This document shows, piece after piece, positions 43,784 to 54,711 of a stretch of 64,000 nucleotides of DNA. The notes beneath the pieces are model-generated. The model was given only the letters and a program-made list of their open reading frames with translations. It was not told where the DNA came from and did not search any database. Location of the stretch: the sequence record NC_028957.1. The stretch is one strand, 5' to 3'. Both the position numbers and the translations under genes were made by a program. The stretch's first letter is position 1. Every line of letters starts with the position of its first letter. The stretch comes from Escherichia phage vB_EcoM_VR26.

Positions 43784-46700
43784 ATGGCCGATATTTTAAA
43801 ACCAGCATTCAGAGCAACATCCGGTCTCGATGCTGCTGGTGAGAAAGTCATTAATGTCGCGAAAGCTGATTACTCAGTTTTGTCAGACGGCGTTAACGTA
43901 GATTTCTTTATAGAAGAAAACACAGTTCAACAATATGATGCAACGCGTGGATACAAAAAGAACTTCGCAGTTATTAATGATAACCGTATTTGGGTTGCTC
44001 AACGTGATATTGATGCTCCTGCTGGAGCATTTACCCCTCAGTATTGGTTAGCAACTCGTACTGACCCTAAATGGGAAACTGTTGCATCTCCGACTCGTCA
44101 GCTTAATTCGGGTGAATTTATCGCAGTTGACTCTGCTGCAAGCTTTACCACATTTACATTGCCTACAAACCCGGTCGATGGCGATACCATCGTTATTAAA
44201 GATATCGGCGGCAATGTTGGTTACAACGAAATTAAAGTGCAGTCAAGCAACGTACCAGGCGGCGGTAACCAAAAGATTGTTCGTTTTGGTAATCAGTATT
44301 CAGAAGTTTTAATTACCAAACCGTTCTCTTATAATATGCTTATCTTCTCGAATCGCTTATGGCAATTCTGGGAAGCTGGCAACGAAGAACGTGGCATCAG
44401 AGTAGAACCATCAACTGGTCGTTTCCATGCGCAAGCCGGCGACTTTATTATGCGTCGTTATACAACCGGTGCACCGATTACTTTCATTCTTCCTAAGTAT
44501 GCGAACCAGGGCGATATTGTCAAATCTGTTGATATCGATGGCCTGGGGCCAACATTCCACCTGATGGTTGAAACCTTTGACTCCAGTTCCAGTCTTGGTA
44601 AAGCTGGACAGCATCAAATGGAATTCCGCACCACGGGCGATGGCTTCTTTGTTTATAATGCCGCCGAAAAACTCTGGTATGTTTGGGACGGTGATTTTAA
44701 AACTCGTCTTCGCGTTATTCGCGATAACGTTAAACTTTTACCGAACGAAAGTGTCATTGTATTTGGTGAAGATAACTCAACTCCAGCGACGATTAATATC
44801 GATTTGCCAACGGATGTTTTGCAAGGTGACATTGTTAAAATTGCACTGAACTATCTCCGCAAATCACAGACTGTTAATATAAGAGCTGCTGCTGGTGATA
44901 AGATTGCATCTGACATTAAATTGTTGCAATTTCCTAAACGCTCCGAGTATCCACCAGATTCAACTTGGGTATTGGTTGATTCATTGACCTTTAATGGTAA
45001 CATCAGTTATACTCCAGTTATTGAATTGTCTTATGCCGAAGATAAATTGTCTGGAACAAGTTATTGGGTTGTTGCTCAAAACGTTCCGACTGTTGAGCGA
45101 GTTGACTCATTAAATGATTCCACGCGTGCTCGTCTTGGTGTTATTGCTCTGGCAAACCAGACTCAGGCAAACGTTGACCATGAAAATAACCCAGAAAAAG
45201 AACTCGCAATTACTCCTCAGACTTTGGCTAACCGTGTTGCTAAAGAGAACCAACGAGGCATTGCCAGAATCGCAACGACTGCCCAAGTAAATCAGAACAG
45301 TGATTTTGCATTTGTTGATGATGTAATTATTTCTCCGAAAAAACTCAATGAACGTACGGCAACAGAAACGAGACGTGGGCTCGCAGAACTCGCCACACAG
45401 CAAGAAACTGATGCAGGTGTAGATGATACCACAATTATCACTCCAAAGAAACTGCAAGCGCGTCAGGGCTCAGAATCGCTGTCCGGTATCGTGACTTACG
45501 TCCCGACCACTGGTGCAACTCCAGCTACTTCGCGTGAATTAAATGGTACAAACGTTTATAATAAAAATACCACTAATCTGGTAATTTCTCCGAAAGCTCT
45601 TGACCAATACAAAGCTACTTACACTCAGCAAGGCGCAGTTATTCTGGCCGTTGAAAGTGAAGTAATTGCAGGTACATCGCAATCTGGCTGGCCAAACGCT
45701 GTTGTTACTCCGGAGATGTTGCATCGTAAAACAGCTCTTGATTCCCGTATCGGTTTAATCGAAATTGCTACTCAGACAGAAACAAATGCAGGAACCGATT
45801 ATACCAGAGCCGTGACTCCTAAAACGTTAAATGACCGTAAAGCATCAGAAACGTTAACCGGCATAGCCGAGATTGCTACGCAATCAGAATTTGATACTGG
45901 AACTGATGATACTCGTATCTCAACTCCATTAAAAGTTAAAACTAGATTTAATAATACTGCTCGTACTTCTGTTAATGCATTAAGTGGTTTAGTAGAAACA
46001 GGGACGCTCTGGGACCATTATAACCTGAATATTCTTGAAGCAAATGAGACACAACGTGGTACGGCAAGATTAGCAACTCAGGGTGAAGTTAATACCGGTA
46101 CTGACGATAAAACAATCGTTACTCCGCTTAAATTGATGTCGAAAAAAGCCACTGAAAATGCCGAAGGTATTGTTCGCATTGCGACAAACGCAGAAGCGAC
46201 TGCCGGTACATCGAAAGTTCTGGCCATCAGTCCGTCTGCGCTGAAATATATTGCACAAACGGAAACAACCTGGGAAGCATCTGAAACACTGCGTGGATTT
46301 GTTCGTTTATCTTCTGGCACAGCTACTTCGGCCGCAACTACAACGACTGGTGCAGGATTTACATATGAGAATGGTGTATATACCCCGGACCCAAGTAAAC
46401 TGGTTAACTACGTAAAATCTGGCTATGCAGTTTCGCCTTACGAATTAAACCGCGTATTGCAAAACTTCTTACCGATAAATGCGATGGCTGTTAATGCCGA
46501 AAAACTTGATAGCCTCGATTCAACCCAGTTTATTCGTCGTGATATTGCTCAGACTGTTGAAGGTGTGTTAACTCTCACCAAACAGACAAATTTATCCGCT
46601 CCGGTTGTATCGACGAGCACTGCAGTGTTTACTGATGTAACGGCTGGCACTTCGACGTTCGGAACTGTGAATGTTGTTAATGGAACCAACAAGTGGAAAA

Positions 46701-47797
46701 TCACTGCTCCTTCCACCGGAACGACAATGACTATTGGCGATACGACTAACGTATTGACATTAAACACTGCCTCGGGCAATGTTGCTGTATTGAACAACCT
46801 TAGTGCCGGAAACGATGTTCAAGCCAAAAATAATTACGTTCTAAACGGTCGTACTATTGCAACCACGACGGGTGAAGCTTCTGGTGCAACTCTGGCCCTG
46901 GGTGATAACTCGCAGAATTTAGTGCTCAAAACTCTTGATGCTGGTAATATCATAGCAAATGGTGGCGGTGCATTTAAAGTCCTGACCGAGAAAAACGCTG
47001 TTGAGATTGTTGATAGAAACTTTGTTAACCAAGCGGGCGATACAATGTCTGGTATGCTCCGTGTGAATGCTCCGGTCCGTGTATTCGGTACGAAACCAAG
47101 TCTTATCGCACAAGCCCCAACTGCGGAAACTGTTGGCTTCTGGTCTGTTGATATTAATGATGAACCGACTTACAGTCAGTTCCCCGGTTATTGGACAATG
47201 ATTTTAAAACGTCAAATAAACATTGATACCGTTCAAACTAAACCGGCCGGTATGTCCGATGAAGTTTGGAATAGTTCTGGTTGGTTAACAGAAAACGGCA
47301 AGAATGGTAAATTACCCGGTGGACAAGAATTGGGTCCCGATGGACAACCGATTACACCACAGCCTCCGGTTGTACCAATTCATTATCGTAAACCAGATGG
47401 AACTTTAGGTGACCCAGTTAGTACACCAGAGGCTCCTATACGTGGTACATGGTTTGACTATTCAGTTCGTGACAAACAAATTAAATATCCTGGTACATTG
47501 ACTCAGTTTGGTAATACGCTGGATTCATGCTATCAAGATTGGGTTTGCTATCCTACTGGATTAAACGGTGGTACTATTCGTTATACTCGCACATGGCAGA
47601 AAAATAAATCAGCCTGGACGACTTTCGCAATGGTTTACACCGCGGATAACCCTCCGTCTGCAGAGGATGTTGGTGCATTACCGGCGGACAACACAACAAT
47701 GGGGAACTTGACCATTCTTGATTGGTTACGTATCGGTAACGTGCGTATCATCCCAGACCCGACCACTAAATCCGTTAAGTTTGAATGGGTTGAATAA
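43784..47797 (+). CDS. 34: long tail fibre proximal subunit gp34
   Basis: 1337 aa; repetitive fibre protein; synteny 34-35-36-37. Confidence 0.9.
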   Translation: MADILKPAFRATSGLDAAGEKVINVAKADYSVLSDGVNVDFFIEENTVQQYDATRGYKKNFAVINDNRIWVAQRDIDAPAGAFTPQYWLATRTDPKWETVASPTRQLNSGEFIAVDSAASFTTFTLPTNPVDGDTIVIKDIGGNVGYNEIKVQSSNVPGGGNQKIVRFGNQYSEVLITKPFSYNMLIFSNRLWQFWEAGNEERGIRVEPSTGRFHAQAGDFIMRRYTTGAPITFILPKYANQGDIVKSVDIDGLGPTFHLMVETFDSSSSLGKAGQHQMEFRTTGDGFFVYNAAEKLWYVWDGDFKTRLRVIRDNVKLLPNESVIVFGEDNSTPATINIDLPTDVLQGDIVKIALNYLRKSQTVNIRAAAGDKIASDIKLLQFPKRSEYPPDSTWVLVDSLTFNGNISYTPVIELSYAEDKLSGTSYWVVAQNVPTVERVDSLNDSTRARLGVIALANQTQANVDHENNPEKELAITPQTLANRVAKENQRGIARIATTAQVNQNSDFAFVDDVIISPKKLNERTATETRRGLAELATQQETDAGVDDTTIITPKKLQARQGSESLSGIVTYVPTTGATPATSRELNGTNVYNKNTTNLVISPKALDQYKATYTQQGAVILAVESEVIAGTSQSGWPNAVVTPEMLHRKTALDSRIGLIEIATQTETNAGTDYTRAVTPKTLNDRKASETLTGIAEIATQSEFDTGTDDTRISTPLKVKTRFNNTARTSVNALSGLVETGTLWDHYNLNILEANETQRGTARLATQGEVNTGTDDKTIVTPLKLMSKKATENAEGIVRIATNAEATAGTSKVLAISPSALKYIAQTETTWEASETLRGFVRLSSGTATSAATTTTGAGFTYENGVYTPDPSKLVNYVKSGYAVSPYELNRVLQNFLPINAMAVNAEKLDSLDSTQFIRRDIAQTVEGVLTLTKQTNLSAPVVSTSTAVFTDVTAGTSTFGTVNVVNGTNKWKITAPSTGTTMTIGDTTNVLTLNTASGNVAVLNNLSAGNDVQAKNNYVLNGRTIATTTGEASGATLALGDNSQNLVLKTLDAGNIIANGGGAFKVLTEKNAVEIVDRNFVNQAGDTMSGMLRVNAPVRVFGTKPSLIAQAPTAETVGFWSVDINDEPTYSQFPGYWTMILKRQINIDTVQTKPAGMSDEVWNSSGWLTENGKNGKLPGGQELGPDGQPITPQPPVVPIHYRKPDGTLGDPVSTPEAPIRGTWFDYSVRDKQIKYPGTLTQFGNTLDSCYQDWVCYPTGLNGGTIRYTRTWQKNKSAWTTFAMVYTADNPPSAEDVGALPADNTTMGNLTILDWLRIGNVRIIPDPTTKSVKFEWVE

Positions 47798-47805
47798 GAG
47801 GTAAT

Positions 47806-48936
47806 ATGGAAAAATTTATGGCAGAGTTTGGACAAGGATACGTCCAAACGCCAGTTATATCAGAAAATAATGCCGTTAAATTTAAAATGAGTATAGCAGG
47901 GAGCTGTACTCTTTCCACGGTGAAATCGTATATCAAATTTCAGGACGAACGAATCGGGCCAACTACTTTTGGTAATGGTCTGACTCTATTGGAAATTGAT
48001 ACAACTACGAATAAAATTGTTAACACGAAAAACTATTCATTAACCAGCACACACGATGCAATCAGTCAGGCATTAATTACCTTTGTGGAATCTGTTCCAG
48101 CCGGAAGATTAATTGCATTTATTTCTTCCGGTAAGCTAAATGCTTCACAGACATTAATTGACTGGATGCGATTAAAGGGGTCAAAGGCATTCCCTGAAAA
48201 ATGGCTAATCGACAAAGTTGACACATCTTACTCGGCATTCTATATCTCTGGTCGAAATGTAATCGTCTCCGAGCATGTAAAATATAACGATGGCAAATTT
48301 GTTGAAGATGTATCCACCCCATTAGAAGTTGTTTATGATACCTTTAGTGATATAGGAGCAACAGGCTATCCTGTGCGCATAACGGAAGACGAGAGCACGT
48401 ATTCATCAACAGGTGATGGAACACCAGCCACAATTAAAAGGTTCCCTAGAGAGGACCTGGTGACTCCTATGGCTGGCTACAACCTTTTGCCTTTGGATAT
48501 GCTTTATCTGAAGTTTCAGATGTCATTTGATGCTGCTCTGAAAGCCGCTGGGACTGTAAGGACTTCGGTTCGATTCTTTAAAAGCCCCAGCACCTCTCCT
48601 ATATCAAATACAAACATCGATATTGCAACAAACGTTCCAGCCGGTGCATGGGCGAGTTTTGAAAGATATGTCGAGATTCCAGCAGGTGCCGATGGTTTTA
48701 CAGTAGTAACGTCAAGAACTGTAGCTGTGGGAACTGGGTCAATACGTAATATTGTTATTGGTGAGATAACCAGAGACGACTCTGCGTTCAAACCAGCTGA
48801 ATTTGGTGTCAACGGCATAAGGATGTCATATGCAAACGATGCAACAAATACAGGCAATACAATTGTAACATTCCCTGATGCACAAGCTCCGCGTGCAGGC
48901 AAGATTTATGCAGCCGAACTTCGAGAAAAACAATAA
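47806..48936 (+). CDS. 35: long tail fibre hinge connector gp35
   Basis: 376 aa; size and position as T4 gp35. Confidence 0.85.
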   Translation: MEKFMAEFGQGYVQTPVISENNAVKFKMSIAGSCTLSTVKSYIKFQDERIGPTTFGNGLTLLEIDTTTNKIVNTKNYSLTSTHDAISQALITFVESVPAGRLIAFISSGKLNASQTLIDWMRLKGSKAFPEKWLIDKVDTSYSAFYISGRNVIVSEHVKYNDGKFVEDVSTPLEVVYDTFSDIGATGYPVRITEDESTYSSTGDGTPATIKRFPREDLVTPMAGYNLLPLDMLYLKFQMSFDAALKAAGTVRTSVRFFKSPSTSPISNTNIDIATNVPAGAWASFERYVEIPAGADGFTVVTSRTVAVGTGSIRNIVIGEITRDDSAFKPAEFGVNGIRMSYANDATNTGNTIVTFPDAQAPRAGKIYAAELREKQ

Positions 48937-49003: not shown

Positions 49004-49651
49004 ATGGCTGATTTAAAATTAGGTTCAACCGCCGGAGGTTCAGTCCTTTGGCATCAGGGTAATTTCCCTTTAACACCAGTTAGTAATGATGTATATTACA
49101 AAACTTATAAAATTTATTCCGAATATAATAAGCCACAGGCAGTAGATAATGATTTCGTTTCTAAAGCTCTTGGTGGTAATTATAAAGCAAACGTATATTT
49201 CGAACAAGGTCTGACCTTTAACGATTCAAATGGTTATGGCATTAAACTCGGAGCAAGAACAGGCGGTGCACCATTTACAGCTTCATTCCGTATAAAAGGT
49301 CCGTTTGGTTTCGAAACCGAAACAGGCACGCCATTTGTTATTTTTGACCCCGATACTACAACCGGAGCAAAACGTTTTACTGTTATGGGTGATACGCTGG
49401 CTCGTCAAGTTTATGATGATTCGGGTCGTGTATTTTCCCCAGGGAACACTCCGTCGAAAGCTCAAGTTGGTTTAGGAAACGTAACTAACCAGCAACAGGT
49501 AGAACTAAATAATAGTACATTACAATCAATGACAGGAAACTTGTCAGCGCCCAATTTTTTCTCTAGGAACCCTGCATCAGACCCGGCTCACGTGCCTCGT
49601 TTTGACCAAATCGTTCTTAAAGACTCCGTACAAGACTTTGGATATTATTAA
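49004..49651 (+). CDS. 36: long tail fibre distal subunit connector gp36
   Basis: 215 aa; size and position as T4 gp36. Confidence 0.85.
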   Translation: MADLKLGSTAGGSVLWHQGNFPLTPVSNDVYYKTYKIYSEYNKPQAVDNDFVSKALGGNYKANVYFEQGLTFNDSNGYGIKLGARTGGAPFTASFRIKGPFGFETETGTPFVIFDPDTTTGAKRFTVMGDTLARQVYDDSGRVFSPGNTPSKAQVGLGNVTNQQQVELNNSTLQSMTGNLSAPNFFSRNPASDPAHVPRFDQIVLKDSVQDFGYY

Positions 49652-49659
49652 GAGGCATT

Positions 49660-52600
49660 ATGGCTACTTTAAAACAAATACAATTTAAAAGAAGTAAAAT
49701 TGCTGGTGTCCGCCCAACCCCAACTGTATTGGCTGAAGGTGAACTCGCAATTAACTTGAAAGACCGCTTGTTATTCACAAAGGATGATACCGGAGCTATT
49801 ATTGACCTTGGTTTTGCTAAAGGTGGCAATATCGATGGTAACGTTATCCATAAAGGCAATTACAACCAAACGGGCGATTATACCCTCAATGGCACATTTA
49901 CCCAGACAGGTAATTTTAATTTAACCGGAATTGCTCGTGTAACTCGTGATATTATTGCTGCAGGTCAGATAATGACTGAAGGTGGCGAACTGATTTCTAA
50001 GAGCGCTTCTACTTCACACCTTCGTTTCTTTGATGGCGATGACCGAGAACGCGGTATTATCTTTTCGCCAAATAATGCGGGTCTTACCAATCAAGTAGTT
50101 AATATTCGTGTCCAAGACTACGCCGCTGGTAGCGAAAGCACCTACGCGTTTTCAGGCAGTGGCCTATTTACTTCACCAGAAGTATCAGCATGGAAATCTA
50201 TTTCTTCGCCACAAATTCTTACCGATAAAGTTATTACCAACGGCAAGAAGGCAGACGATTATGACATCTATTCGTTGGCTGACAACACTCCTTTAACCGA
50301 AAGCGAAACAGCAATTAATCATCTTCGTGTCATGCGTAATGCCGTTGGTTCTGGTATTTTCCATGAAGTTAAAGATAATGATGGAATAACTTGGTATGCT
50401 GGTGATGGGCTAGAGGCCTATCTATGGTCGTTTACATGGTCTGGTGGATTGAAAGCGGGTCATTCCATTTCTATAGGCACCCCAGGCGGCCCCAAAGGAT
50501 ATTCCGAATTAGGAACGGCTTCAATTGCCCTCGGTGATAATGGCACCGGATTTAAATGGCATCAAGATGGATATTTTTTTACGGTAAACAACGGTACAAA
50601 AACTTTCCTTTCCGGTCCGGCGGAAACTACTAGTCTTAGAAAAATGGTTATGGGTTATTCTGTAAATGGTACTGATTTGACAACGCCGCCGGAAGAAAAC
50701 TATGCCCTGGCAACTGTAGTTACTTACCATGATAATAACGCCTTTGGTGATGGTCAAACCCTTTTAGGATATTATCAAGGTGGTAATTACCATCACTATT
50801 TCCGTGGTAAAGGTACTACAAACATTAACACCGCCGGCGGATTGTTAGTTACTCCAGGTAATATTGATGTTGTTGGTGGTTCGGTTAATATCGACGGACG
50901 TAGTAATGCTTCTACTGTGCTTTTTAAAGGAAATACTATAGGACATAGTTCAGTTGATAATATAGAGCTCAAAGTTTGGGGCGATACTTTTGCTACTGTA
51001 GGTGGTACTCGCAAAAACGTAATGGAAACATCTGATGCTACCGGCTGGATGCAGTATATTCAGCGAACTACAGCAGGTAAAGTCGAATCTTATTTAAACG
51101 GCGCGATGAACATCGTCGAAGGATTAAATGTAGGTCAAGATGCATCCTTAAAACGCAATCTGTACGTTTCCAATGAAATTAAAGTTCGCGGTTCTAGTGG
51201 ACTTCGTATTTGGAACGATAAGTACGGCGTTATTTTCAGGAATTCAGAAGACCAACTACATATTATTCCAACTAATATTAACCAAGGCGAAAGTGGCGGA
51301 TTAGGTCCATTACGTCCATTGAGTATTACATTAGACACTGGTCTGGTTAAAATTCCCAATTTGGCAGCTGGCCAGGTTTCTTTTAGTAGTACAGGCGTAT
51401 TGGAATTTCCCGCCGGTAATGGCGGCTCTTATGCCAACCAGAACACGGCTAAAGCCCCACTGTATCAAACATTAGGTTCGTCGTCGGCTCAAGCATTCTA
51501 TCCTATTACTAAGCAGAAAAATACTGTTTCGAATGTAACTGTTACTCAAGGTATGGACCGAACTACAAGTGAATACCGAATTGTTGCTCAAGGCGATTTG
51601 CTTGGTGATGGTGATGCTACTGGATTAAAATACTGGCGCTTTACTAAAGAAGGTCACTTCATAACTCAGAGCCGCTTATATGCTGGTACAGCATTCTTGA
51701 ACACTGACGGTAACATTGCTGGTTCTATCTGGAACAAATATTCTGGTTCCACTAACCTTGATGCAGCAGTGAGTACTCGTGTCGGTAAAAGCGGTGATAC
51801 AATGACCGGAAAATTGACTATTGAGGCTCCGGGTGATGCATTAGTATTGAGAACAACCACAGGTAATAGCTCGCATATCCGTTCTGATGTAGGTGGTACA
51901 GGTAACTGGTATATAGGCAAAGGCGGCGACGACAATGGTCTAGGTTTCTACAGTTACGCTACACAAGGTGCTATATACATAACAAATAATGGCGAAATAT
52001 CTCTCTCTCCTCAAGGTCAAGGAACATTTAATTTTAACAAAGACCGTATTCATATAAACGGTACACAATGGACTGCACACCAGGGTGGTGACTGGGCCAG
52101 TCAATGGCGTCAAGAAGCTCCTGTGTTTGTGGATTTTGGTAATGTCGGTAATGATAGTTATTATCCTATTATTAAAGGAAAATCTGGTATTACTAATGAA
52201 GGTTATATATCTGGTGTAGATTTTGGTATGCGCCGTATCACTAATACATGGGCCCAAGCTATTATCCGTGTTGGTAACCAGGAAAACGGTCATGACCCAC
52301 AAGCTGTCTACGAATTCCACCATAGTGGTACTTTTTATGCCCCTGGGTTGCTCAAGAGTAGCAGGGTATCAGCAGGTGGTGGTGACCCCGCCTGGTTAGG
52401 GCCGTGTATTGTTCTTGGCGATAATGACACAGGTCTAGTTTGGGAATCTGATGGTGTCTACAACCTTTATGCAAATGGGCAAGGTGTATTCAGTATTCGT
52501 GCTGGACTGGCACAAACATATGCTAACGTAGCGTTAAACGTCAACGCTGGGATGTATGTTCGAGATAACATTGATGTTAACGACGTTTATATCCGTTCTG

Positions 52601-52917
52601 ATATTCGTTGTAAGTCAGAAATTAAGCTTATTAAGAACGCTCAAGAGAAATCTAAACTCTTAGGCGGCTATACTTATCTGCTTAAAAACTCTGTTACAGA
52701 CGAAGTTAAACCATCTGCAGGTTTAATTGCTCAGGAAGTTCAAGAAGTATTACCTGAACTTGTTTCTGAAGATAAAGAGACCGGCTTGCTTCGTTTGAAC
52801 TATAACGGTATTATCGGTTTAAATACTGCTACTATCAACGAGCATACTGACGAAATCAAGGAATTGAAATCTGAAATTGCCGAATTGAAAGCATTAATTA
52901 AATCATTGATAAAATAA
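49660..52917 (+). CDS. 37: long tail fibre distal subunit gp37 with C-terminal intramolecular chaperone (peptidase S74-like) domain
   Basis: 1085 aa; last ~109 aa (YIRSDIRCKSEIK…GLIAQEVQEVLPELV…LNYNGIIGL…, nt 52588-52914) match the auto-cleaving intramolecular chaperone signature. Confidence 0.9.
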   Translation: MATLKQIQFKRSKIAGVRPTPTVLAEGELAINLKDRLLFTKDDTGAIIDLGFAKGGNIDGNVIHKGNYNQTGDYTLNGTFTQTGNFNLTGIARVTRDIIAAGQIMTEGGELISKSASTSHLRFFDGDDRERGIIFSPNNAGLTNQVVNIRVQDYAAGSESTYAFSGSGLFTSPEVSAWKSISSPQILTDKVITNGKKADDYDIYSLADNTPLTESETAINHLRVMRNAVGSGIFHEVKDNDGITWYAGDGLEAYLWSFTWSGGLKAGHSISIGTPGGPKGYSELGTASIALGDNGTGFKWHQDGYFFTVNNGTKTFLSGPAETTSLRKMVMGYSVNGTDLTTPPEENYALATVVTYHDNNAFGDGQTLLGYYQGGNYHHYFRGKGTTNINTAGGLLVTPGNIDVVGGSVNIDGRSNASTVLFKGNTIGHSSVDNIELKVWGDTFATVGGTRKNVMETSDATGWMQYIQRTTAGKVESYLNGAMNIVEGLNVGQDASLKRNLYVSNEIKVRGSSGLRIWNDKYGVIFRNSEDQLHIIPTNINQGESGGLGPLRPLSITLDTGLVKIPNLAAGQVSFSSTGVLEFPAGNGGSYANQNTAKAPLYQTLGSSSAQAFYPITKQKNTVSNVTVTQGMDRTTSEYRIVAQGDLLGDGDATGLKYWRFTKEGHFITQSRLYAGTAFLNTDGNIAGSIWNKYSGSTNLDAAVSTRVGKSGDTMTGKLTIEAPGDALVLRTTTGNSSHIRSDVGGTGNWYIGKGGDDNGLGFYSYATQGAIYITNNGEISLSPQGQGTFNFNKDRIHINGTQWTAHQGGDWASQWRQEAPVFVDFGNVGNDSYYPIIKGKSGITNEGYISGVDFGMRRITNTWAQAIIRVGNQENGHDPQAVYEFHHSGTFYAPGLLKSSRVSAGGGDPAWLGPCIVLGDNDTGLVWESDGVYNLYANGQGVFSIRAGLAQTYANVALNVNAGMYVRDNIDVNDVYIRSDIRCKSEIKLIKNAQEKSKLLGGYTYLLKNSVTDEVKPSAGLIAQEVQEVLPELVSEDKETGLLRLNYNGIIGLNTATINEHTDEIKELKSEIAELKALIKSLIK

Positions 52918-52947
52918 TAAAAGGGCCTTCGGGCCCTGGAGGTTTAT

Positions 52948-53748
52948 ATGGCAGTAGTAGGAATTCCTGGTTGGATTGGGACTTCAGCCGTCGCTGAAAC
53001 CGGGCAAAGATGGATGTCAGCCGCTTCGAGGGAACTTCGTTTAGGAAACCCTTCATGGATGTCTCAATTCGCCGGCCGCTCAAGAGAAATTATTCACACA
53101 CTCGGAGCAGACCATAACTTTAACGGGCAGTGGTTTAGAGACCGTTGCTTTGAAGCCGGTGGCGCACCTATTGTGTTTAACATCACAGGTGATTTAGTGT
53201 CTTATAACAGGGACGTTGCGTTATTCTTTATGAATGGAGATACTCCTAACGAATATGTTACTTTGAATATTCATGGTGGAGTTCACATGTGGGGACGCGG
53301 TGGACATGGAGGTTGGACCCACTCCGGCGGCGACGGCAACGGGCAGTGGGGTGGTGATTGTATTGTTAACCATATAGGCACCCGTTTACGTATATGGAAC
53401 TATGGTGTTATCTGTGGTGGTGGTGGCGGCGGTGGCGGTATCGCTTATCGTCCTCACTCCGGCGCTAACTGGCAGGATATTGGTGGCGGTGGTGGAAGAC
53501 CATTTGGCCCAGGCGGAGGTGGTGCTTATTCAGGAGGTGCCGCTTCTTATGGGGGCCCGGGTGGTGGATATAACTACGGTAACGCTCACTCTGGGCAGGG
53601 TGGCGATGCTGGTGCAGCCGGACAAAACGCCTGGTCTGATGGCGGGAAAGTGCTTAAAGTGGGTGTTGGAGGTGGTTCTGGTGCAGCTGTTGCAGTAACA
53701 GCTCCTGCATGGGGAGCAACAGGTACTATCTATGGACCATGGCTATAA
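52948..53748 (+). CDS. 38: tail fibre adhesin gp38, T2-type with glycine-rich motifs
   Basis: 266 aa; conserved N-terminal gp37-attachment region [24 protein letters not shown]…[46 protein letters not shown]; poly-Gly motifs separating variable segments. Confidence 0.88.
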
Positions 53749-53759
53749 TACTTTTGCGC

Positions 53760-53767
53760 TATAAATA
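53760..53767 (+). promoter_or_regulatory. late promoter motif TATAAATA upstream of holin gene t
   Basis: Exact TATAAATA 19 nt upstream of ATG. Confidence 0.5.
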
Positions 53768-53785
53768 TCTTTAAAGGAGAAAAGT

Positions 53786-54439
53786 ATGGAACCAAAAGTA
53801 GGAATCTCAATACCCGACCTACTTTTTGGACTTCTTGATAGAATTTTTAAAGATAATGCGACCGGGAAAGTTGTCTTTTCCCGGGTACTAGTTATTGTTC
53901 TATTATTTTTAATGGCGGTAATCTGGTATAAAGGTGATGCAATTTTAGATGCGTATAGGGATGCTTCATATGCCTCGTACACGGAAATGATAAGGCAAGA
54001 CCAAGATAACAGATTTAAAATTGCAGCTATCGAGCAAATCCAGATAGTCCATTCATCAAGCGGAGCAGACTTTACAGCGATATATTCCTTCAGACCTACC
54101 AACCTTAACTACTTTGTGGATATGGTTGGCTACGAAGGGAGATTGCCTGATACAGTTGACGAGAAAAATTTGGGTGGGTTTCCAATAGATAAGACTTCAG
54201 CGGAATATTTGGCGGGGGTTAATGGTAATTATTTTGAATCCAGTAATGAATTTGTATTCTTACCAACAAAGAAAAAAAGCAGCTTCGCATATATGTTCAG
54301 CTGCCCATTCTTTAATCTAGAGAACGTTTACGCAGGTACAGTTTCTTTGTATTGGTACGTTCAGAAACCAGACCTTGGTTTTGATAGGCTTTCTGCTATG
54401 TGTGGACAAGCAGGTCGTACGCTCGGGCGTACACGTTAG
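53786..54439 (+). CDS. t: holin T
   Basis: 217 aa; …DLLFGLLDRIFKDNATGKVVFSRVLVIVLLFLMAVIWYKGD… single TM near N-terminus and large periplasmic domain; matches T4 T as recalled. Confidence 0.9.
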   Translation: MEPKVGISIPDLLFGLLDRIFKDNATGKVVFSRVLVIVLLFLMAVIWYKGDAILDAYRDASYASYTEMIRQDQDNRFKIAAIEQIQIVHSSSGADFTAIYSFRPTNLNYFVDMVGYEGRLPDTVDEKNLGGFPIDKTSAEYLAGVNGNYFESSNEFVFLPTKKKSSFAYMFSCPFFNLENVYAGTVSLYWYVQKPDLGFDRLSAMCGQAGRTLGRTR

Positions 54440-54711
54440 AATCCGGAGGTATACATCATAAGATATCGGTGTATATCTTCGAATCCTTCGTTAAATTGTT
54501 CAATGATTTGTTCAATTTCATCTTCAGATAAACTTTTAAACAACTTGTTAAACGATACATTGTTTAACTCATTCCCATTCTCATTCCTCAATCCCAACTC
54601 ATTCAAAAACGCGATAAACACATCACGCTTCATCGTAATATCTTCCCGGTCGGTTTTAATCAAAATTGAAGTAACGGTAACAATTTCAGAAACGATTTCA
54701 AATTTAGTCAT
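54436..54711 (-). CDS. asiA: anti-sigma-70 factor AsiA
   Basis: 91 aa; …EIVTVTSILIKTDREDI…FIAFLNELGL…FNEGFEDIHRYLMMYT matches T4 AsiA as recalled. Confidence 0.8.
   Translation of the reverse strand: MTKFEIVSEIVTVTSILIKTDREDITMKRDVFIAFLNELGLRNENGNELNNVSFNKLFKSLSEDEIEQIIEQFNEGFEDIHRYLMMYTSGF

Follow-up and report, generated by a model that had tools for sequence, protein, structure and literature searches.

The C-terminal 106 residues of gp37, the distal subunit of the long tail fibre of the T-even-type Escherichia phage vB_EcoM_VR26, are a genuine Peptidase_S74-type intramolecular chaperone (IMC) domain. We propose, with a probability of roughly 0.9, that the gp37 precursor is registered by this domain, cleaves itself at Arg979-Ser980 and is then capped at its tip by gp38. 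Gene 37 lies in a window of 64,000 nucleotides (the whole stretch of DNA that was analysed; sequence record NC_028957.1), within a gp34-gp35-gp36-gp37-gp38-holin arrangement. Its product matched PHROG 1699 ('long tail fiber protein distal subunit') with 1062 bits and carried the Pfam domains Gp34_trimer, gp37_trimer and Peptidase_S74, and an NCBIfam search gave no match for either gp37 or gp38. A scan of positions 52400-54600 found promoter and terminator sites no more numerous than in shuffled controls. The gp37 features are as follows:

49660..52917, plus strand: gene 37, long tail fibre distal subunit precursor (ORF; 1085 aa, 116.7 kDa)
49660..52596, plus strand: predicted mature gp37, aa 1-979, ending ...NDVYIR (from the position of SDIRCK; computed mass 104.9 kDa)
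52402..52596, plus strand: gp37 distal tip, aa 915-979, a homologue of the tip region in S16 gp37 with its gp38 docking pockets (phmmer to 6F45_A)
52597..52914, plus strand: IMC, aa 980-1085, the 106-aa piece (11.8 kDa) predicted to be released (PF13884, PDB profile matches, AF2/Foldseek, PHROGs)
52597..52599, plus strand: Ser980 codon, putative nucleophile, which would open the released fragment (Pfam S74 match begins here; invariant column; read from sequence)
52612..52614, plus strand: Lys985 codon, predicted general base, five residues past the Ser (invariant alignment column)
52801..52911, plus strand: long C-terminal alpha-helix, aa 1048-1084, presumed trimeric coiled coil (model helix 74-110, pLDDT 90-97; heptad pattern)

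When whole gp37 was searched, the Pfam Peptidase_S74 model (PF13884) matched aa 980-1035 (E 7.7e-12) with 45.8 bits, more than double its curated cut-off of 22 bits. An earlier note, made from the DNA letters, had proposed such a domain and named a Peptidase_S74 HMM search as a check; with the C-terminal fragment alone, the match was indeed significant (E 1.4e-13, 51.3 bits). The peptide quoted there is the exact translation of 52588-52917, the C-terminus of the 1085-aa ORF, and its C-terminal placement of the domain stands. The start at Tyr977 (nt 52588) and the length of ~109 aa do not: both the domain and the fragment predicted to be freed begin at Ser980 (nt 52597) and, therefore, the released piece would be 106 aa and YIR would be part of the mature tip.

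The domain occupies aa 980-1085 of 1085, at the extreme C-terminus of a tail-fibre protein, and 33 tail-fibre PHROGs were matched by it at their C-terminal end, over the last ~100 positions of the profile. Homologues were present in 1681 phage records, the 126-aa C-terminus found 14 matches in a word-indexed protein search, and a deposited coliphage genome carries an identical IMC sequence. In the PDB, the C-terminal 171 aa of gp37 matched 6F45_A by phmmer (E 3.2e-31) from aa 915 across the predicted cleavage site. The domain profile matched 6F45, the MyRF ICA (7DC3; 3e-10) and the 8JOV tail fibre (5e-8), and the neck appendage IMC 3GUD weakly (0.54). Weak spurious Pfam matches (CDC37_C, TMF_TATA_bd) on the C-terminal helix indicate compositional bias in that region, which would suit a chance or low-complexity (coiled-coil) similarity with no IMC domain behind it. 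The probability of this is negligible, since it is aa 980-1035, upstream of the helix, that match S74 (E 1e-13), and the PDB sequence matches, fold search, 1681 phage records and 33 PHROG families agree independently. Hence, chance coiled-coil similarity was refuted by the Pfam, PDB profile, PHROG and Foldseek results, and the assignment as an IMC domain was retained.

The AF2 monomer model of the IMC domain (pLDDT 83.5) consists of a small mixed alpha/beta unit and, after it, a long helix at the C-terminus. When this model was compared with the PDB by Foldseek, the top seven matches were all IMC structures (7DC3, 3GW6 and 3GUD), with probabilities of 0.94-1.00. TM-scores to solved IMCs were moderate (0.46-0.59) and the rmsd was high, since the comparison set a monomer model against chains from intertwined trimers. 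The C-terminal helix has hydrophobic residues at 8/10 a/d positions in its best heptad register, and the IMCs of T5 and K1F have a trimeric coiled coil at their centre (PMC4690869). Another AF2 monomer model, which covered the tip and the IMC together (aa 877-1085), had a mean pLDDT of only 50 and was set aside for the fold search; this low value is expected for a single chain of an interdigitated trimer and a 14-sequence alignment.

The Ser/Lys dyad that the earlier note had read in the context SDIRCK was borne out by alignment. S980 and K985 are invariant when SDIRCK is aligned with SNGERK of the K1F endosialidase, SDIRLK of T5-like pb1, SDIRLK of T2 gp37 and SDRRIK of S16 gp37, and are nearly invariant among 14 database homologues. 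Based on this pair, the scissile bond is predicted to be DVYIR979|S980, which would give a 979-aa mature fibre subunit (104.9 kDa) and an 11.8-kDa fragment. Ahead of the cut, T5 and K1F have a folding sensor made up of an Arg from the neighbouring chain and an Asp (Arg1250 and Asp1239 in T5). R968, D969, D972 and D975 of gp37 are candidates for such upstream residues, and the stretch ahead of the cut is poorly conserved among gp37 here, T2 and S16. The T5 counterpart of Ser980 is Ser1264, and that of Lys985 is Lys1269, the activator of Ser1264 (PMC4690869). The DVYIR^SD cleavage motif of the Yersinia fPS phages was described on the basis of an alignment to DLNVS^SDRRIKK, the site in S16 (PMC7917993). 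In the literature, autoproteolytic release is given for K1F, T5 and S16, and processing for T2 (PMC7917993, PMC3157838, PMC7289586, PMC4690869). By homology with T2, S16, T5 and K1F, we infer that gp37 of this phage also cleaves itself.

Given that cleavage in the phage studied rests on homology, the IMC-like domain might instead stay uncleaved, as a permanent trimerisation coiled coil on the mature fibre with gp38 bound elsewhere or alongside; a coiled coil is strongly predicted for the C-terminal helix, which might in principle serve as a stable tag for trimerisation. We regard this as very improbable. The catalytic pair is intact and invariant, the close homologues in T2 and S16 are cleaved (PMC3157838, PMC7917993), the gp38 docking surface of S16 is exposed only once the IMC is gone (PMC7917993), and the Trp prongs of gp38 are kept in the phage studied. 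It is just as improbable that the gp37 C-terminus is cut by a separate phage or host protease, with the S74-like segment serving as a folding module only. The 1986 T2 work would allow for this, as PMC3157838 cites it only as 'proteolytic processing'. However, changing the conserved Ser to Ala blocks T5 pb1 cleavage in E. coli, and the same change was earlier described as inhibiting cleavage of a similar IMC domain (PMC4690869). Moreover, wild-type T5 pb1 is cleaved when expressed alone in E. coli, which speaks against a separate phage protease in the T5 case, and gp37 here has the same geometry of Ser and Lys at +5. Self-cleavage at Arg979-Ser980 remains the preferred reading.

The predicted partner of the processed tip is encoded immediately downstream, by a gene that starts 30 nt past the gp37 stop:

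52948..53748, plus strand: gene 38, T2/S16-type receptor-binding adhesin, 266 aa, predicted to cap the processed gp37 tip (Pfam, PDB and PHROG matches)
52948..53073, plus strand: N-terminal attachment domain of gp38, aa 1-42, bearing Trp9, Trp22 and Trp37 (Pfam Gp38_N; Trp alignment with S16)

The gp38 protein matched Pfam GP38 (PF05268; E 1.1e-64) and Gp38_N (PF21721; E 1.6e-20), PHROG 2056 (E 3.5e-107) and the PDB entries 9V85 (E 6.7e-60) and 6F45_D (E 2.2e-49), whereas a comparison with the T4 gp38 chaperone revealed no similarity (E 4.2). In agreement with what had been proposed from the sequence, the separately encoded gp38 is therefore an adhesin and not a T4-style chaperone. Its W9, W22 and W37 align with all three Trp of S16 gp38, which are inserted into pockets on the gp37 base (PMC6851490).

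Likewise, gp37 here is not of the T4 type, which is marked by C-terminal needle domains that bind the receptor and by a gp38 chaperone of the T4 kind. In a control search, T4 gp37, a user of the gp38 chaperone, was found to have Collar and Phage_fiber domains and no Peptidase_S74, whereas Pfam found neither Collar nor Phage_fiber (needle) domains in gp37 here. The C-terminal 407 aa of T4 gp37 and the C-terminal 385 aa here had no significant similarity. Common to T4 and this phage are the gene order (34-35-36-37-38-t) and, in gp37, homology of the N-terminal and shaft region (Gp34_trimer). A need for the general fibre chaperone gp57A may persist even though a T4-style gp38 chaperone is absent.

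The domain identity and position, Ser/Lys pair, fold, gp38 type and conserved Trp residues, all obtained by computation, are consistent with a maturation pathway modelled on T2, S16, T5 and K1F. The IMC would align three gp37 precursor chains in register, with the long C-terminal helices forming a trimeric coiled coil that seeds the folding of the beta-helical tip of the fibre, starting at its C-terminal end. When the trimer has folded correctly, Lys985 would activate Ser980 for attack on the Arg979-Ser980 bond in each chain. The 11.8-kDa IMC fragment would then dissociate, and its removal would expose a blunt tip of ...DVYIR strands. One gp38 monomer may dock on this tip via its N-terminal three-helix domain, with Trp9, Trp22 and Trp37 entering three symmetry-related pockets, and the glycine-rich C-terminal domain of gp38 would display the receptor-binding loops. 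The 6F45 structure contains three gp37 chains and one gp38 chain. The cut, its exact bond, the order of these events and a 3:1 stoichiometry are all predicted by analogy with the four characterised systems.

The S16 gp37-gp38 tip (6F45; Dunne et al. 2018, as cited in PMC7917993 and PMC6851490) shares the gp37 tip plus IMC and a separate downstream gp38. The likeness covers the C-terminal 171 aa of gp37 (E 3e-31), gp38 (E 2e-49), the Ser/Lys motif and the three gp38 Trp. In contrast, S16 has DLNVS^S at the cut where DVYIR^S is found here, its IMC is ~50% identical to the one here, its released fragment is 113 aa rather than 106 aa, and its gp38 hypervariable loops are unlike those here. In a T2 control, Peptidase_S74 lay at aa 1243-1300 of gp37, directly after NVYIR. 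C-terminal processing of phage T2 gp37 was reportedly described by Drexler, Riede and Henning in 1986. For T2 and T6, PMC3157838 (citing Drexler et al. 1986) gives C-terminal cleavage of gp37, followed by the gp38 cap. The T2 IMC is ~36% identical to the one here and is without the terminal 'AELKALIKSLIK' helix extension (99 aa released in T2, 106 aa here), and the fibre shafts diverge (gp37 overall identity 34.8%). The Yersinia phages fPS-2, -65 and -90 have DVYIR^SDGRLKI, with the same five-residue tip strand as here (PMC7917993). In T2 and the fPS phages, as here, gp37 is followed by a GP38-family adhesin.

The K1F endosialidase (endoNF, 3GW6) and T5 pb1 (4UW8) belong to the same MEROPS/Pfam family S74, with Ser and Lys at +5, and also have a trimeric fibre or spike with the IMC at its extreme C-terminus. 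The gp37 IMC model matched 3GW6 with a Foldseek probability of 0.94-0.97, but the IMC here is much shorter, at 106 aa compared with 154 aa in K1F (which has a large insertion) and 133 aa in T5. The mature tip of K1F and T5 acts as the enzyme or receptor binder itself, whereas the processed tip here would be a docking platform for gp38. T5 pb1 itself (4UW7/4UW8) was not found by phmmer or hmmsearch against the PDB, nor by Foldseek; the T5-type link therefore rests on the pb1 proteins of T5-like Epseptimavirus phages, which match the gp37 domain at ~41% identity, and on the shared Pfam family. The best structural match was the MyRF ICA (7DC3; Foldseek E 3.7e-5, TMq 0.59), with a profile match of E 3e-10 and (A)DLRAK aligned to SDIRCK. 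MyRF is a eukaryotic membrane-bound transcription factor, in which cleavage frees the N-terminal transcription factor and does not serve fibre maturation.

The arrangement described here is the ordinary, already described T2/S16 type, and contains no new biology. Indeed, the earlier note had mentioned C-terminal gp37 processing in T2-type phages as possibly known biology, and PMC3157838 shows this to be correct. The prior record, as found in PMC3157838 and PMC7917993, comprises T2 gp37 processing (1986), the S16 tip structure (6F45) and the Yersinia DVYIR^SD motif (2021). For annotation, the mature fibre subunit is predicted to end at Arg979, the receptor binder is gp38 and not gp37, and the last 106 codons of gp37 would encode a disposable folding module. 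For host-range engineering and recombinant fibre production, constructs would need to keep the IMC and to co-express gp38.

A DNA block that is 96-100% identical to a Tequatrovirus begins almost exactly at the predicted cleavage site, and spans the IMC, the intergenic spacer and the start of gene 38. There is a slim chance that the released IMC trimer has a second role (e.g. timing or licensing gp38 loading) or that the IMC and gp38 attachment domain form an exchangeable cassette. The cassette idea draws support from this shared block, because it runs from the cleavage site into gene 38; any function of the IMC after cleavage is purely speculative. Exchange of IMCs between fibres is plausible and in part already documented, with mosaicism noted in PMC7917993 and a lock-and-key pairing of the gp37 C-terminus with the gp38 N-terminus in PMC3157838.

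The fibre genes of vB_EcoM_VR26 follow the canonical T-even long-tail-fibre order (gp34-gp35-gp36-gp37-gp38-holin t):

gp34, 43784-47797, long-tail-fibre cluster
gp35, 47806-48936, hinge protein of the long-tail-fibre cluster
gp36, 49004-49651, long-tail-fibre cluster
gp37, 49660-52917, plus strand, 1085-aa ORF of the long-tail-fibre cluster
gp38, 52948-53748, 266-aa product, long-tail-fibre cluster
holin t, 53786-54439, last gene of this order

Within the cluster, gp35 aa 57-127 weakly matched the Pfam family ILEI (interleukin-like EMT inducer / FAM3 fold; 26.1 bits, cut-off 27), and gene 37 ends in two tandem in-frame TAA stops (52915-52920).

The earlier note placed an intramolecular chaperone (IMC) domain at 52588-52917. 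The peptide it quoted is the exact translation of this interval, the C-terminus of the gp37 ORF, and the domain is indeed located there (aa 980-1085); only the start, three codons too early, required correction. The Peptidase_S74 HMM check proposed for gp37 was positive. This Pfam family ('Chaperone of endosialidase', PF13884) covers aa 980-1035 and scored 45.8 bits for whole gp37 (E 7.7e-12) and 51.3 bits for the C-terminal fragment (E 1.4e-13), against a curated cut-off of 22 bits. In a PDB sequence search, the last 209 aa matched 6F45_A, the S16 long-tail-fibre distal subunit construct (E 3.2e-31), in an alignment that includes the entire IMC as well as the tip preceding the cut. A profile of 11 homologues found the MyRF ICA domain (7DC3; 3.3e-10) and a tail fibre in 8JOV (5.2e-8); its hit to the IMC of a neck appendage, 3GUD, was weak (0.54). 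The S-D-x-R-x-K motif was aligned in all three. By tblastn, homologues were present in 1681 phage records, among them T-even-like gp37, cyanophage fibres and T5-like pb1 (∼41% identity, E 2e-16).

Structure prediction gave a concordant result. The AF2 model of aa 975-1085 (mean pLDDT 83.5) places a 37-residue helix after a small alpha/beta unit, and its first seven Foldseek matches in the PDB were all solved intramolecular chaperones (probability 0.94-1.00), namely 7DC3, 3GW6 (the endoNF IMC) and 3GUD, with unrelated noise from rank 8 onward. Heptad repeats are clear in the helix (8/10 a/d positions hydrophobic), consistent with the T5 IMC, for which a trimeric coiled coil has been described (PMC4690869). 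The control proteins also behaved as expected: K1F endosialidase (E 7e-9) and T5-like pb1 (E 1e-10) were S74-positive, as was T2 gp37, the classical case of C-terminal processing (aa 1243-1300, E 3.3e-15). T4 gp37 relies on the T4 gp38 chaperone to fold; in Pfam it has Collar and Phage_fiber domains in place of S74, and its last 407 aa showed no significant similarity to the last 385 aa of the VR26 protein. Several independent lines agree that the gp37 C-terminus is an IMC domain.

A 121-aa NCBI 'tail fiber domain-containing protein [Escherichia coli]' (P0001) matches the gp37 C-terminus at 100% identity. It lies on a 166-kb contig that appears to be a phage genome deposited as E. coli, with the IMC called as a separate short ORF; gene 37 may be split or frameshifted there, or the short ORF may be an artefact of annotation.

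The proposed Ser/Lys dyad was upheld by alignment, with Ser980 and Lys985 invariant across all five proteins:

Window gp37, SDIRCK
T2 gp37, SDIRLK
T5-like pb1, SDIRLK
K1F endosialidase, SNGERK
S16 gp37, SDRRIK

In T5, Ser1264 is both scissile and catalytic and is activated by Lys1269, five residues on; S1264A blocks cleavage (PMC4690869). Because gp37 carries a DVYIR^SD sequence identical to the cleavage motif described in 2021 (PMC7917993), we place the predicted cut between Arg979 and Ser980 (nt 52596/52597). The predicted products are a 979-aa mature subunit (computed mass 104.9 kDa) and a 106-aa fragment (11.8 kDa).

Gene 38 begins 30 nt downstream of gene 37. Its product matched GP38 (E 1.1e-64) and Gp38_N (E 1.6e-20) in Pfam, PHROG 2056 ('tail fiber protein; host specificity'; E 3.5e-107) and the solved adhesins 9V85 (E 6.7e-60) and 6F45_D (E 2.2e-49), and is unrelated to T4 gp38 (E 4.2). 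These results bear out the suggestion of a separately encoded adhesin rather than a T4-style chaperone. In alignment, Trp9, Trp22 and Trp37 correspond to the three tryptophans of S16 gp38, which the authors of the S16 structure describe as inserting at 120-degree intervals into hydrophobic pockets in the base of the gp37 trimer (PMC6851490); in 6F45, gp37 is present as three chains and gp38 as one.

The 30-nt spacer holds a GC-rich hairpin of the C(UUCG)G tetraloop type (GGGCC-UUCG-GGCCC; 52922-52937), with the GGAGG Shine-Dalgarno of gene 38 directly 3′ of it. Hairpins of this kind are common between the genes of T4-type phages, and the scan flagged this one only as a minus-strand terminator-like site.

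In the best-supported account, the IMC would trimerise via its coiled coil and serve as a template on which the fibre tip folds. With a correct trimer in place, the Ser/Lys pair would cut at R979/S980 and the IMC dissociate, allowing one gp38 monomer onto the exposed DVYIR tip for receptor recognition. The present analysis shows what the domain is, its residues and fold, and the type of its partner; cleavage, its timing and stoichiometry are inferred from S16, T2, T5 and K1F. A need for the general chaperone gp57A would be compatible with this scheme.

The earlier note was correct that C-terminal processing of T2-type gp37 had been reported: Trojet et al. (PMC3157838) cite Drexler, Riede and Henning 1986 for it. 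The S16 gp37-gp38 tip complex has also been solved (6F45) and its IMC reported as autocleaved (PMC7917993, PMC7289586), the DVYIR^SD motif has been described, and a 100% identical IMC protein sequence has been deposited for phage vB-Eco-KMB39. The observation is therefore correct but not new: the gp37 IMC with gp38 belongs to textbook T2-type fibre biology. The value of the observation lies in annotation and practical fibre engineering.

The backbone most resembles that of Escherichia virus TH15 (95.7% identity across 95% of 25 kb, 30000-54900). Against TH15, the gp37-gp38 segment (49660-53748) is more diverged (87.5% over 77%), and no phage record covered at least 80% of it, marking the distal fibre genes as the local divergence hot-spot. 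Against KMB39 (OR539219), a Tequatrovirus, DNA identity is 96-100% from ∼52600 to 53000, a mosaic block that takes in the IMC, the spacer and ∼50 nt at the start of gene 38, compared with 75-81% directly upstream and ∼50% in the gp38 C-terminal half. Protein identity is 100% for gp37 aa 1001-1085 and 97.5-100% for gp38 aa 1-80, but only 18-28% for gp37 aa 601-700. This profile, and a left edge that falls where cleavage is predicted (nt 52597), suggest that the IMC, spacer and gene 38 5′ end form an exchangeable module.
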